Assembly (NCBI GenBank): GCA_005888325.1
Contig: VAWU01000030.1
Location: 80,349-133,890 of the forward strand
DNA: 53,542 nt
Source: Actinomycetota bacterium
Lineage (GTDB): Bacteria; Actinomycetota; Acidimicrobiia; Acidimicrobiales; AC-14
Direction: 5' to 3'
Position 1 is the stretch's first letter. Each line of letters starts with the position of its first letter. Positions 40,633 through 53,542 of the stretch are shown in pieces. The notes beneath the pieces were generated by a model. It saw nothing but the letters and a program-made list of their open reading frames with translations. It did not search any database and was not told the origin of the DNA. The position numbers and the translations under genes were made by a program.

Positions 40633-41386
40633 CGCCGCGGTGATGGGCAACGAGCTTCGGGTCATACGCCACGACGCCGGGCCGCTCGCCCTGGTCGTCA
40701 TGATCCCGCTCGCAATGGCGTTCGCGAAGCCGTCGTTCGGCGGGGCACTCCGCGACGCGGGCTACCGACGCGCGAACGGCGCCGAGCAGGTCGTGCCGGG
40801 CCTCAGCATCCTGCTGTGCTTCATGATGGTGGTGTTCGTCGGCGAGGCGTTCTTCCGCGAGCACCGCTGGTCGACCTGGGACCGACTACGAGCCAGCGCC
40901 CTGAAGCCATGGGAGATCGTGCTGGGGAAGCTCGCGCCGATGTATGCCTTCGTGCTCGGCGCGCTCGTTCTGCTCTTCGCAACGGGGTTCCTGGTGCTCG
41001 GTCTGGTCTGGCCGCGCGCACCCCTCGGTCTGGTGCCACTTCTGCTCACGTTGCCGCTGTGCCTGGTGGCGCTGGCTGCCGCGCTCGTCGCCGTAAGCCG
41101 GTCGTATCTGCAACTGAGCGCGCTCGCCAACGTGTTCGGGCTCGGCCTCGCCGGTCTCGGCGGTGCGCTGGTGCCCATTCAGACACTGCCGCCATGGGTG
41201 CGGACCGCGGCGGTGATCACACCGCCCTACTGGGCGATGCGAGGGTTCCGATCGCTCTTCCTGAAGGGTGACGGAGCGGGGTCGGTGGTATTGCCGACGC
41301 TGATGCTCCTCCTCTTCACCGCGCTCTTCGCGGCCGTTGCGCTGTGGCGGTTTCAGTTCGGCGAGAGCAAGTCGTCCGTCCGCTGA
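40619..41386 (+). CDS. ABC-2 type transporter permease
   Basis: The start overlaps the ATPase stop. There are 6 TM helices. Confidence 0.65.
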   Translation: MLRRSAAVMGNELRVIRHDAGPLALVVMIPLAMAFAKPSFGGALRDAGYRRANGAEQVVPGLSILLCFMMVVFVGEAFFREHRWSTWDRLRASALKPWEIVLGKLAPMYAFVLGALVLLFATGFLVLGLVWPRAPLGLVPLLLTLPLCLVALAAALVAVSRSYLQLSALANVFGLGLAGLGGALVPIQTLPPWVRTAAVITPPYWAMRGFRSLFLKGDGAGSVVLPTLMLLLFTALFAAVALWRFQFGESKSSVR

Positions 41387-43044
41387 TCACGAGCTCGGGG
41401 CGCGCTCGGGCTGAGCAACCGCTGGACCTCGGGCAGCGCGGCACGCATGGCGCGCTCGCCCGCCTGTGACCAGGAACGGCGTGGCATCACGTCGTACCAG
41501 CGCTCCTCGTCGCACGTGGGCGCGACGATGACGTCCGCCTGACGACACGAGTGAGCAGAGAGCTGGGCCATGACCGTGTCGAGGCCGATGAAGAGGTTCT
41601 CCAGCAGTCCGGGCGTCGGAAAGCGCAGCCGTGGCAGCTGGATGAACGCCCCGAGCGCACCGTGACCCATCATCATGATGTTGACGGCGATGACGATGTC
41701 CGCGCCGCGCGCCCGGAGCGCACTCACCGGCACCGGATCAGCGGTGCCCCCGTCGACCAGACGCCGACCGACGAGAGGCACCGGGGGAAACACTCCCGGC
41801 ACGGTCGCCGAGGCCACCACGGCCTCGGCCAACGGCCCCGAGTCGATGTGCACGGCCTCTCGCGTGACGACATCGGTGGTGGCGATCACGAAGGGGACGG
41901 GCAGATCCTCGATCTTCGTCTCGCGGCCGACGTGCTTGCGGAGGAAGGTGAGCATGCGCCGCCCGGTCAGGAGCGAGCCGCCGGTCAAGGCGACCGACGG
42001 GATCGACGTCAACACCGCGGTGCGTATCGCGTCAGGGAGCTCGCGGGGCGGCATCCCGGTCAGGAAGAGGGCGCCGGCAATCGCTCCCGCGCTCGCACCC
42101 GACACGAGATCGATCGGCACGCCCGCTTCGGTGAGGACCTCGAGCACGCCCCCGTGTACGAAACCGCGGATACCGCCCGACCCCAGCGCCACGCCCACGC
42201 GACGACCACAGATGGTGCGCGCCAGAGCAGCGATGTGGGCACCGTCGAGCGACTCGGCGACGACGTCGGCGCGATGACCGTTCTGGGACGCGATCCCGGC
42301 GACCTCTCCGAGCGCGATCACGCGATCGGCGCCTTCGAGCAGCGCGTCGGGAACAGCGGTGCAGAAGAGCAGCAGGACGAGCGCGTGGTCACGCACCGCT
42401 TGGACGGCGACGCCGGCAATGTCGTCGGGCTCGTGGATCGTCGTCGAACGTGGCAACGACGCGCGCCCCCACACCGTGGCCGGGCCGCACGCGATCACCA
42501 TCGGTGCCTCGCCCAGCAACTGCCGGCATTCGCGGGTGAGCGCGGCGGCGACCAAGGCGATCGGGCGCGACGTCGCGGCACAGAGCACGACGGTCTGACC
42601 CTTCGGGAGGCCGACGCGCGCCCGGCTGGCGGCCGAGAGGCGCTCGCTGACGATGCGGCCCACGTTGGATCCCAAGCGCGGCGAGGACGCCAGTAGCTCG
42701 ACGAAGTCGGCGTGATCGAGCCGCCACAGCGTCACGCCCGTCTGCGCCACCGCCGAGGCGGAGCGCGGTCGCCCGCTCAGCAAGGACTGCTCGCCGATCG
42801 TTTCGCCCGGTCCGATCGTGACGACCCGGGCGGCGGCGCCCGCCGGGCCCCGGCCCACCACGTCGACCAAGCCCGAGCGCACGAGGTAGAGCGCGTCACC
42901 GGGATCGCCCTCCTCGAACACCGTCGCACCCGCAGGCAGCCGGACCTCACGCACCGCCTGCTCGAGCGCCTTCAGCTCGTCATCCGCGAGTCCTTCGAGC
43001 AGGCCGAGCTGCTGACCGGGCTGGACCAGCCCGCCGCTGCTCAC
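41353..43044 (-). CDS. cyclic nucleotide-binding domain / patatin-like phospholipase fusion protein
   Basis: cNMP domain: LLEGLADDELKALEQ...GDALYLVRSGLV...GEQSLLSGRPRSASAVA. Patatin: GSGGIRGFVHGG (oxyanion), GASAGA (GxSxG) and DGGTAD (catalytic Asp). The start is uncertain: GTG at 43044 is proposed, and the upstream ORF extension is Arg-rich. Confidence 0.7.
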   Translation of the reverse strand: MSSGGLVQPGQQLGLLEGLADDELKALEQAVREVRLPAGATVFEEGDPGDALYLVRSGLVDVVGRGPAGAAARVVTIGPGETIGEQSLLSGRPRSASAVAQTGVTLWRLDHADFVELLASSPRLGSNVGRIVSERLSAASRARVGLPKGQTVVLCAATSRPIALVAAALTRECRQLLGEAPMVIACGPATVWGRASLPRSTTIHEPDDIAGVAVQAVRDHALVLLLFCTAVPDALLEGADRVIALGEVAGIASQNGHRADVVAESLDGAHIAALARTICGRRVGVALGSGGIRGFVHGGVLEVLTEAGVPIDLVSGASAGAIAGALFLTGMPPRELPDAIRTAVLTSIPSVALTGGSLLTGRRMLTFLRKHVGRETKIEDLPVPFVIATTDVVTREAVHIDSGPLAEAVVASATVPGVFPPVPLVGRRLVDGGTADPVPVSALRARGADIVIAVNIMMMGHGALGAFIQLPRLRFPTPGLLENLFIGLDTVMAQLSAHSCRQADVIVAPTCDEERWYDVMPRRSWSQAGERAMRAALPEVQRLLSPSAPRARDQRTDDLLSPN

Positions 43045-43416
43045 CGGGCCACCGCGCGCGTCCTGTGACGCTCGAAGCGCATCTCCGCAGCCATCGCGAC
43101 CCTTTCCGTTGCGGGGAGCGCCGTTGCCGTGGCGGGACGGATGCCTCCCCCAGCGGCGTGGATCATACGACCGGCACCGACGACGCGCTCGGGTGGTCCG
43201 GCCAGGGACGATGCAGATCGGCTGAACCTCCCGGGCCGGGCATTTCGTCCCTCGATCGCGGGCGGCGGGAATGACAGACTCTGGCGAAAGCATTCCGCCA
43301 GAAACACGCTGAAGTGTGTCCTCGCCGACAGACATCGGGCGGCGACGGGCACATGCTGAGGGTCGTGCGTCGTGCGAGTGGAAGCGGCGCGTTCACGTCG
43401 TGCAAGAGGGGTGATC

Positions 43417-52497: not shown

Positions 52498-53151
52498 CTA
52501 CTTGGCGCGGCGGGAAAGCGTCTGATGGTCGAGGATCTCGACCTTGTTACGGCCGATGCGCACCAGTCCCTGCTCTTCGGCGCGGCGCAGGATGCGATTT
52601 GCGGTCGGGCGGGTGAGGCCGGCGAGCTGAGCGAGCGCCTCCTGGCTGAGCGGTACCACCGCGGCCGGCTCGTCGCGGGTACCGAAGAGGCTCGCCACCT
52701 CGAGCAGCCGCCGGATCAAACGCGGCTCGGAGGGAAGGTAGAGAGCTTCCGTGAGCGCCGACGCGAGACGCCGTACTTCGGCAACGAGGGCGTTCGTGAT
52801 CACGCCTTCGACCGCCGGACGGCGGGCGCGGAGCTCGTCGAGTTGCTCCTTGTGGATGGCGAGGGTCTCGACACTGTCGAGTGCGACGACCGTCGCGTTG
52901 CGCGGGCCGGGCGCGATGACAGCGAGCTCGCCGAAGAACTCGCCGGCACGGATGACGCGAAGTGTGGCCACGTCGCCGAGCGGTGTCGTGATCCGCACCG
53001 CCACGTGTCCCTTCGTCATCAGGTGCATCGTGTCGCCCGGGTCGCCGTCGTGGAAGATGATCTGGCCGGCGGTGAACCTTCGTCGTCGAGCCAGGGCCAG
53101 GAAGTCTCGACGGTCCGGCTCGGACAGAACGGCGAGCAGCGGTGATTCCAC
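52498..53151 (-). CDS. Crp/Fnr family transcriptional regulator
   Basis: The cNMP domain (GDPGDTMHLMTKGHVAV...GEFFGELAV) is followed by a C-terminal HTH (SQEALAQLAGLTRPTANRILRRAEEQGLV). Confidence 0.8.
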   Translation of the reverse strand: MESPLLAVLSEPDRRDFLALARRRRFTAGQIIFHDGDPGDTMHLMTKGHVAVRITTPLGDVATLRVIRAGEFFGELAVIAPGPRNATVVALDSVETLAIHKEQLDELRARRPAVEGVITNALVAEVRRLASALTEALYLPSEPRLIRRLLEVASLFGTRDEPAAVVPLSQEALAQLAGLTRPTANRILRRAEEQGLVRIGRNKVEILDHQTLSRRAK

Positions 53152-53196
53152 CCGGCGAGGTCTAGACGCGTGCGGTGGACGGAGCCAGTCCCGAGC

Positions 53197-53542
53197 TCAC
53201 TCTCGCCGAAGCCGGTACATCGGAATGGTCTCGAACTCCTTGGCGGTCGTCACCCGGCCGACGTAGTCGCACGCGATGCCCGAGCTCGGTTCGATCGCGA
53301 TGAGCGCCGCGAGCGCGTCGGTGCCGTAGACCTCGCCCTCGGGGGTCCGCGGCTCGATGCGGGCGGCGCGTGTCATCTCCCGGCCCCACCAACCGTCGGC
53401 GCCACAGAACGGGTCTGCCAAACGCAAGATGGGCCCCGCATGCACGCCGATGCGCAGCGACAAGTCGGGCGGGAGCCCACACGTCACGAGATCGATCGTC
53501 TGCACTGCTTCCTGCAGCTCGAGCGCACAGCGCGCCGCGGCG
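53197..53542 (-). CDS. class III adenylyl/guanylyl cyclase catalytic domain. Only the 3' part is present; the gene continues beyond the window end.
   Basis: ...LRIGVHAGPILRLADPFCGADGWWGREMTRAARIEPRTPEGEVYGTDALAAL is a cyclase catalytic-core signature. The frame is open to the edge. Confidence 0.6.
   Translation of the reverse strand, partial: AAARCALELQEAVQTIDLVTCGLPPDLSLRIGVHAGPILRLADPFCGADGWWGREMTRAARIEPRTPEGEVYGTDALAALIAIEPSSGIACDYVGRVTTAKEFETIPMYRLRRE

Follow-up and report, generated by a model that had tools for sequence, protein, structure and literature searches.

A likely cyclic-nucleotide signalling island joining a cyclase–Crp pair and an FtsX–ABC operon in an Acidimicrobiales contig

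At the right-hand end of a 53,542-nt stretch from the genome of an Actinomycetota bacterium of the Acidimicrobiales (assembly GCA_005888325.1, contig VAWU01000030.1, positions 80,349 to 133,890 of the forward strand; this whole stretch is called the window below), genes for proteins that make or bind cyclic nucleoside monophosphates (cNMPs) lie close together, which raises the question of whether they are neighbours by accident or parts of one signalling circuit. An earlier note made from the sequence had counted five such genes within 12 kb and suggested a locally wired circuit that may control membrane remodelling and export. We consider it likely that the cluster is a genuine, evolutionarily maintained cyclic-nucleotide signalling island of an uncultivated soil actinobacterium, and that it joins two modules, a cyclase–crp pair with its receptors and an operon encoding an ABC-type machine.

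Signalling by cAMP and cGMP in bacteria has mostly been studied effector by effector, and a question still to be answered, above all in mycobacteria, is how a diffusible messenger made by many cyclases can act specifically. The island offers a compact and conserved candidate for a private circuit: a single sensor-cyclase is accompanied by a Crp of its own, a candidate common operator and two outputs, enzymatic or mechanical. It introduces no new principle, as clusters of signalling genes and enzymes fused to cyclic-nucleotide-binding (CNB) domains are already known.

Local enrichment and gene neighbourhoods in relatives

Genes were chosen by their codon-position GC pattern, the window having ~70% G+C, and the picked open reading frames (ORFs) were scanned with Pfam. 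All five cNMP-related genes were recovered at or near the places given to them earlier. These encode a CNB-patatin phospholipase (41353..43335, minus strand; cNMP_binding 82.2 bits and Patatin 111.4 bits, both above the Pfam cut-offs), a 331-aa ABC ATPase with a C-terminal CNB domain, hereafter ABC-CNB (50299..51294, plus strand; ABC_tran 119.5 bits, cNMP_binding 59.4 bits), a stand-alone CNB protein of 157 aa (52021..52494, plus strand; cNMP_binding 37.8 bits, cut-off 27.5), a 217-aa regulator of the Crp/Fnr family (52498..53151, minus strand; cNMP_binding 77.1 bits, HTH_Crp_2 53.9 bits) and a cyclase, present as its 3′ end, the last 114 codons, where the gene is cut by the window end (53197..53542, minus strand). 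All four CNB domains pass the Pfam cut-offs, while the windowed cyclase fragment alone, at 17.6 bits for Guanylate_cyc, lies below its cut-off of 21.9. The further ABC pair at 39.5–41.4 kb (ABC_tran and ABC2_membrane) carries no cNMP domain according to Pfam and falls outside the signalling set.

Using a hidden Markov model (HMM) built from the CNB domains of the island and its homologues and run on all six frames, we detected exactly four CNB ORFs in the 53.5 kb, those of the island; positions 1–41 kb gave none, either with this model or in Pfam scans of ~45 further ORFs. The local density is therefore four CNB genes per 12.2 kb, or ~330/Mb, and the same HMM found one CNB ORF in 1.35 Mb of unrelated genome loci (0.74/Mb). 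A profile search with the ABC-CNB alignment picked up generic Walker A/Q-loop motifs and returned 80 ordinary ABC loci, which were kept as background only. By a clumping estimate, a random genome of 4–9 Mb needs ~100 or more CNB genes to make one such 12-kb cluster of four likely; for M. tuberculosis, ~10 predicted cNMP-binding proteins are reported genome-wide (PMC4705688).

When metagenomes were scanned with the cyclase alignment, 80 loci were retrieved, and CNB ORFs are present in 26 of them (here and below, L-numbers denote fetched genome or metagenome loci and P-numbers proteins, and identities are at the protein level). Crp is among these CNB ORFs in nine loci, and in eight of the nine, all of them among the closest homologues, crp abuts or overlaps the cyclase gene; several CNB domains are fused to the cyclase itself, and one CNB ORF is an ABC-CNB protein. 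The farther from the cyclase, the lower the CNB density: it is 119/Mb inside 1 kb, 39 at 1–3 kb, 19 at 3–5 kb and 5.3 at 5–10 kb, and this decay provides both a lineage background of ~5/Mb and direct evidence of selected linkage to the cyclase. Judged by these proxies (~330/Mb versus ~5/Mb in lineage flanks and 0.74/Mb in unrelated loci), the local enrichment is strong, and the clustering is extremely unlikely to be chance. The fullest likeness is seen in L096, whose cyclase is 54% identical to that of the window and where Crp (61% identical), a CNB-patatin, a 141-aa CNB protein and the cyclase are encoded inside 4.7 kb; nearby are YCII and a DUF6596 extracytoplasmic function (ECF) sigma factor, as at 19.6–21.3 kb in the window. 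Cyclase and crp also adjoin in L097, and a CNB neighbour is absent from L098 (cyclase 44% identical).

Eight independent loci were anchored on the ABC-CNB protein (60–72% identical). The FtsX permease is retained in all eight, and within 10 kb each of them also has one or more other genes of cNMP signalling. In L087/L088 a CNB-patatin gene follows directly 3′ of FtsX and ABC-CNB on the same strand, overlapping the end of the ABC gene, which supports a link between the patatin and the ABC machine; the window CNB-patatin is 51.5% identical to this L087 protein. The neighbours are a CNB-PNPOx protein, a CNB-aldehyde dehydrogenase and a CNB-NTE_Ploop-patatin in L089, a 114-aa CNB protein and a Metallophos protein upstream in the same gene string in L090/L091, and a divergent 142-aa stand-alone CNB protein in L095. 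Immediately 3′ of FtsX/ABC-CNB in L092 and L093 lies a gene for a cyclase-STAND protein, homologous to a more distant window gene described at the end, and L094 has a homologue of this type lacking PF00211 within 3 kb, together with a patatin gene cut by the locus end. We also observed that L087/L088 encodes a phosphoesterase (L087:14046-15662) 1.3 kb from its CNB-patatin gene, 31% identical to a phospholipase C-type Phosphoesterase of the window (22005-23603, minus strand), which may be a further lipid-hydrolase association.

The cyclase–crp pair and the stand-alone receptor

Contigs 99–100% identical to the window (soil metagenome, ENA CRIT18-1 series) reach beyond its right end and complete the cyclase, which is 596 aa once scaffold gaps are allowed for, P0121 (99% identical) being an intact copy. 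On one of these contigs (L003, 99% identical) a 609-codon ORF covers the cyclase gene and scores 22.6 bits for Guanylate_cyc; we rejected it as the full protein, as it crosses a scaffold gap and its C-terminus is out of frame, and took P0121 instead. The protein consists of an N-terminal TPR-S domain (Pfam 34.9 bits), a YpsA-like SLOG domain with the Rossmann-like fold of the SLOG superfamily, and a divergent class III domain. An AlphaFold model of P0121 from a 14-sequence alignment (predicted local distance difference test score, pLDDT, 89.5; predicted template modelling score, pTM, 0.90) gives its C-terminal domain a class III cyclase fold. The metal-binding residues Asp430 and Asp472, together with Arg512, Arg540 and Arg543, are invariant in 14 of 14 family members, and in an alignment with 3mr7 and Ma1120, D430, D472, R540 and R543 coincide with the catalytic motifs of these proteins. 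The canonical Lys that specifies the purine (adenine) is replaced by Asn468, again invariant in the family, and in the alignment the canonical transition-state Asn is replaced by Thr or Ser; the adenylyl cyclase Ma1120 is likewise without Asn at that exact position. Since the fold is confidently modelled and the metal Asp and Arg residues are invariant, we predict that the enzyme is probably active, with a product that cannot be read from its sequence. The earlier label of class III adenylyl cyclase thus holds for the fold but not for a plain adenylyl cyclase, the protein being a divergent enzyme behind TPR-S and SLOG.

Names attached to cyclase homologues at 45–52% identity (Acidimicrobiia, Ilumatobacteraceae and 'Actinomycetota bacterium') indicate Actinomycetota. 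Our literature search found no description of SLOG fused between TPR-S and a class III cyclase, and the pairing of such a cyclase with its own Crp is previously undescribed, as is the candidate shared operator presented below. Other cyclase-family homologues of 950–970 aa (P0235, P0238; L128, L132, L133, L148) add Trans_reg_C, BTAD and cNMP_binding to TPR-S, so that proteins of the P0235/P0238 type are a direct fusion of receptor and TPR-S/SLOG scaffold. To the right of the window the overlapping contigs (L001:669-5369, L003:10-1314 and L002:1-585) carry genes for a second PD40 protein of 1566 aa, 50% identical to the PD40 protein of the window, for a 434-aa protein homologous to the PD40 C-terminus and for a second TPR-S and cyclase protein of 585 aa; these copies past the window end indicate that the island is larger and partly duplicated.

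The cyclase gene is followed after 46 bp by crp, which has the same orientation, and the two are apparently co-transcribed. The regulator aligns over its full length (CNB and helix-turn-helix, HTH) with solved actinobacterial CRPs (E ~1e-25 to 1e-27), which include the M. tuberculosis CRP entries 3d0s/3i54 as well as 4cyd/4byy, which we take to be Corynebacterium GlxR. Like actinobacterial CRP/GlxR proteins such as M. tuberculosis Rv3676, it has CNB and HTH over the full length and keeps the cassette Arg. It differs in the cassette motif, which is R-N-A and not R-T-S, in its recognition helix, RPTANR versus RETVNK in the best-matching solved actinobacterial CRP (4cyd), with Pro in place of the Glu of the CRP-type R-E-x-x-x-R/K pattern, and in its candidate half-sites GTGTC/GACAC, where the usual CRP half-sites are TGTGA/TCACA. 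The RPTANR helix, as judged from its residues, would fit half-sites unlike TGTGA. With 61% and 51% identity to the Crp proteins of L096 and L097, both encoded beside cyclase homologues, it appears to act locally, in partnership with a single cyclase, and not as a global regulator.

The best solved relative of the stand-alone CNB protein is the cAMP-binding domain of mycobacterial Pat. Its phosphate-binding cassette is non-canonical, with Arg and Thr out of register with Pat, and the protein may be a non-canonical binder or an adaptor; the degeneracy of the cassette suggests an adaptor or non-binder.

The FtsX–ABC operon, the CNB-patatin and a shared palindrome

The ABC-CNB gene is the third of four on the plus strand. 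A stand-alone GerE/LuxR helix-turn-helix protein of 93 aa (48941..49222; Pfam GerE 57.5 bits) is encoded first, followed by a MacB/FtsX-type permease with an extracytoplasmic domain (49253..50299; MacB_PCD 38 bits, FtsX 46.7 bits), the ABC-CNB ATPase and, last, a 200-aa P-loop protein (51291..51893). The GerE and permease genes are 30 nt apart, and the next two pairs overlap by 1 nt and 4 nt; this tight spacing makes the four genes look like one operon. NCBIfam places the P-loop protein in the 'DNA topology modulation protein' family (PRK08118, 199.7 bits, short of the cut-off at 215), and Pfam gives weak AAA_18/AAA_33 matches only.

The nucleotide-binding domain of the ATPase has the motifs GPSGCGKTT, LSGGQQQR and VVADEPT, and its best NCBIfam similarities are to DevA, FtsE, MacB and LolD. 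A permease with MacB_PCD and FtsX domains and a separate nucleotide-binding domain with Walker A, signature and Walker B are the marks of a MacB/FtsX (type VII) machine. The earlier reading of a cNMP-gated ABC ATPase for export is thus right in that a C-terminal CNB domain is present, but the machine is not a classical exporter. The fusion marks a large family, and all 120 best homologues (60–100% identity) carry both PF00005 and PF00027, and in the cassette F279, G280, E281, P289, R290 and A292 are invariant and S291 nearly so (alignment A1). A tblastn search of plasmids with ABC-CNB returned zero fusion homologues.

The patatin ORF spans 660 aa, and the likely true start is the GTG at 43044, giving 563 aa. 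We rejected the 660-aa form as the gene, its first ~97 residues being Arg-rich and without homologue coverage. The protein is composed of a CNB domain, an NTE-like linker and a patatin phospholipase domain, the best solved match of which is PlpD. The CNB cassette is intact by sequence (GE...RSA), the translation contains the oxyanion motif GSGGIRG, the GASAG nucleophile motif and DGG, by which it belongs to the patatin family, and we predict that the enzyme is catalytically intact. A string of lipid-type genes upstream of it (37572-41386, plus strand), encoding an NTP_transf_3 nucleotidyltransferase, a CDP-alcohol phosphatidyltransferase and an ABC-2 exporter pair, may be connected with a role for this enzyme in membrane lipids.

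The 53.5 kb contain four copies of a palindrome, TGTC-N6-GACA (at 43317, 48435, 48892 and 51924), every one of them in intergenic DNA of the island; its background is 0.15 per 10 kb (456 kb of unrelated high-GC loci). Site 1 (43317..43330), a candidate operator, lies between the divergent patatin and PD40 genes. Sites 2 and 3 are in two leader copies on the plus strand, which form a direct repeat 79% identical over 71 nt: copy 1 (48416..48486), with site 2 at 48435-48448, precedes a 47-codon ORF, and copy 2 (48873..48943), with the perfect site 3 GTGTC-N6-GACAC at 48891-48906, is directly 5′ of the GerE–FtsX–ABC operon. Site 4, also a perfect GTGTC-N6-GACAC (51923..51938), is ~90 bp upstream of the stand-alone CNB gene. 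The perfect 16-mer is thus observed twice (48891 and 51923) compared with 0.17 expected. Just 5′ of the cyclase gene in L097 and L100 there are tandem palindromes of a related type, TCTGTGTC...CACA and then an identical 22-mer, CGTGTGTTCCCGTCGACACGGT. The 5-N6-5 geometry is that of CRP-family operators. Rfam gave zero matches in the window at gathering thresholds, and no meaningful match at E<=1 in 47.9–52.1 kb, a stretch with three of the four palindromes, which thus match no known RNA family.

The 47-codon ORF behind the duplicate of the operon leader with its palindrome (48484-48627, plus strand) has a hydrophobic C-terminal stretch, MFTTEEIDTFPHDGPTDSLIRLASISFALATLITFAWIALGVLLVGF.

Proposed circuit, rival explanations and other features of the window

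In the circuit that we propose, module A would comprise the cyclase–crp pair and the CNB receptors. The TPR/SLOG region of the cyclase would sense a protein or a nucleotide-derived cue, upon which a 3′,5′-cyclic nucleotide would be made and read by up to four local receptors: Crp, with a transcriptional output through a small regulon; CNB-patatin, with hydrolysis of membrane lipids; the stand-alone CNB protein; and the CNB domain of the ABC ATPase. The last belongs to module B, the GerE–FtsX/MacB permease–ABC-CNB ATPase–P-loop operon, in which the C-terminal CNB domain, by analogy with C-terminal regulatory domains of other ABC ATPases, would gate dimerisation of the nucleotide-binding domains and hence mechanotransmission or extrusion by the permease. 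The palindrome in the four intergenic regions (TGTGTC-N-GACACA type, 5-N6-5) would serve as an operator for joint regulation of the island by the local Crp or, in its stead, by GerE, and the physiological output would be lipid turnover coupled to an envelope-directed ABC machine. The idea of a locally wired circuit accordingly stands as far as the enrichment, the same gene sets in relatives at 40–70% identity and the shared palindrome carry it; ligand, product and output, membrane remodelling and export among them, are putative. It yields testable predictions on the effect of cNMPs on a MacB-type ABC ATPase and on an NTE-like patatin lipase, and on the role of SLOG ahead of a cyclase.

Parts of the island resemble known systems. 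By domain architecture it shares with M. tuberculosis Rv2563–Rv2565 an FtsX-type permease beside an ABC-CNB ATPase, plus a CNB-esterase, and the FtsX–ABC-CNB–CNB-patatin order of L087/L088 matches Rv2563–Rv2564–Rv2565 gene for gene, Rv2565 being presumably of the patatin/NTE type. PF00027 is present in both Rv2564 and Rv2565 (PMC4886424), Rv2565 is listed as an esterase (PMC10865251), and Rv2563/64 and Rv0072/73 are MacB-like transporters of uncertain function (PMC7761784). In contrast to the mycobacterial locus, the window patatin is 7 kb off and inverted, not in the same operon, and the window adds Crp, a stand-alone CNB protein, GerE, the P-loop protein and the TPR-S/SLOG cyclase. NTE/PNPLA6 likewise combines CNB domain(s) and a patatin esterase in one polypeptide (PMC6995513), and the L089 homologue also carries the NTE_Ploop linker domain; the bacterial protein differs in being soluble, with a single CNB domain and a genomic tie to a cyclase, Crp and an ABC system. 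Pycsar/Pucsar systems share a class III-type cyclase and CNB-activated effectors, the CNB similarity being at domain level, but the island has a patatin instead of a TIR or transmembrane (TM) effector, has an extra regulator and ABC genes, and is without defence-island context.

Several points weigh against a single maintained circuit. The comparison within the host covers 41 kb of the same contig and is otherwise made with lineage proxies, not with a genome-wide CNB count, and a CNB gene is missing from 54 of the 80 loci with the cyclase, although many of those contigs are only 2–6 kb long. The missing canonical Lys and Asn leave neither cyclase activity nor product assured, and the 157-aa stand-alone CNB protein has its degenerate cassette. 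Between the patatin gene and the ABC operon, which are 7 kb apart and on opposite strands, there is a large, unrelated gene for a secreted protein. As for the palindrome, its pattern was chosen once the data had been seen, neither L096 nor the ABC-anchored loci contain it, and a GerE site or an RNA hairpin would explain it equally well.

The neighbours could instead share a domain and have separate wiring, brought together by duplication, rearrangement or a common envelope/lipid function, each CNB domain hearing the global cAMP pool. PMC4705688, and PMC11107214 with its preprint, describe many cyclases and a diffusible messenger in actinobacteria such as M. tuberculosis; the make-up of the neighbourhood varies between loci, the cyclase of L098 has no CNB neighbour, and rearrangement scars are present in the form of the inverted PD40 C-terminus remnant described below, the duplicated leader and the PD40 paralogues. 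However, the decay of CNB density and the tight adjacency of cyclase and crp in the closest homologues are hard to explain without selected linkage, and the shared palindrome argues for co-regulation, so we consider separate wiring unlikely. A chance cluster in a genome very rich in CNB paralogues we hold to be extremely unlikely: some soil bacteria do hold many signalling paralogues, but the other 41 kb has 0 CNB genes, the lineage background at 5–10 kb from cyclase homologues is ~5/Mb, it would take ~100 or more CNB genes placed at random, and other genomes repeat the same combinations.

Conflict systems are where TPR-S was defined, as a sensor domain, and some CBASS systems have patatin as their effector. 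An anti-phage system of Pycsar/Pucsar or CBASS type, in which infection would trigger a cyclic nucleotide and CNB-patatin would wreck the membrane in abortive infection, has these in its favour, along with the occurrence of cNMP cyclases and cNMP-binding and SLOG domains in actinobacterial conflict systems (PMC7159879), the non-canonical specificity residues of the cyclase and the resemblance of the patatin and Crp CNB domains to PycTIR, TIR-effector and PycC models (PADLOC, E ~1e-9 to 1e-10). The full-length cyclase, however, matches no PADLOC model, PycC included, at E<=1e-3, and only the CNB parts of the island effectors match PycTIR models, no CNB-TIR/TM effector being present; in place of a minimal cyclase–effector pair there are Crp and an ABC machine. 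Pfam scans of the window revealed no mobile-element or defence-island context, and the YCII and ECF-sigma flanks, which L096 also has close to the module, suggest that the locus is a stable part of the chromosome. Furthermore, the CNB-patatin/ABC core matches by architecture a chromosomal M. tuberculosis locus (PMC4886424, PMC7761784), and we regard a dedicated defence system as very unlikely. A new system triggered by stress or infection, in which housekeeping cAMP signalling is crossed with immunity of the Pycsar/CBASS kind and which would be common among Acidimicrobiia and related Actinomycetota, is decidedly unlikely in our estimation; here the cyclase with Lys changed to Asn and Asn to Thr/Ser would make a non-canonical cyclic nucleotide on a danger signal, either nucleotide-derived or a protein, and this messenger would jointly switch on CNB-patatin, the CNB-gated MacB-type machine and a private Crp regulon. 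If it were true, it would give the first functional handle on M. tuberculosis Rv2563–Rv2565. The maintained signalling island with two modules remains the reading that we prefer.

The large gene between the two halves of the island encodes a 1532-aa PD40/PKD protein (43372..47970, plus strand; Pfam PD40 50.7 bits) with a signal-peptide-like N-terminus. It is a neighbour, itself not a cNMP protein, and may be co-regulated. Its 6–7 tandem repeats of 168–183 nt (45200-46420, plus strand) are beta-propeller blades and not a non-coding array. An inverted repeat of 190 nt, 74% complementary, pairs 47764-47953 with 48059-48248, and the ORF at 47880-48338 on the minus strand repeats the final ~65 residues of the PD40 protein; this is a paralogue remnant and a likely rearrangement scar between the island halves. 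An antisense ORF (45541-48006, minus strand) was dropped as a gene, with zero Pfam matches and a shadow-frame GC pattern.

A sixth, cyclase-containing regulator had been proposed at 4.1–7.5 kb. The gene (4076..7464, minus strand) lies in two frames, ORFs 6196-7464 and 4076-6469 meeting at a junction near 6.26–6.30 kb, and the two together span the whole length of ~1100-aa homologues with Guanylate_cyc (PF00211) and AAA_16. A cyclase-homology domain, an AAA_16 STAND ATPase and TPRs are present, but the N-terminal domain scores a sub-threshold 14 bits for Pfam Guanylate_cyc, while matching the cyclase domain of NCBIfam LipJ at E=3e-14, and the frame is split. The gene is real but apparently frameshifted, being either a pseudogene or the product of a sequencing or assembly frameshift. 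Mycobacteria have cyclase-STAND-TPR(-LuxR) proteins of the Rv0386 type, from which the window gene differs in its frameshift and in that no LuxR domain was detected.

Elsewhere in the window, an F420-dependent LLM oxidoreductase is encoded, above the NCBIfam cut-off, in keeping with the assignment to Actinomycetota. The nitronate monooxygenase gene at 29631-30800 (plus strand) seems split, profile positions 20-76 matching the ORF from 29631 and 107-331 matching 29983-30735 in another frame, which is a second possible frameshift in the window. Finally, the AT skew is -0.216 in the 2-kb bin 24001-26000, far off the rest of the window, and this bin overlaps an SPFH/Band 7 gene (24672-25955, minus strand).

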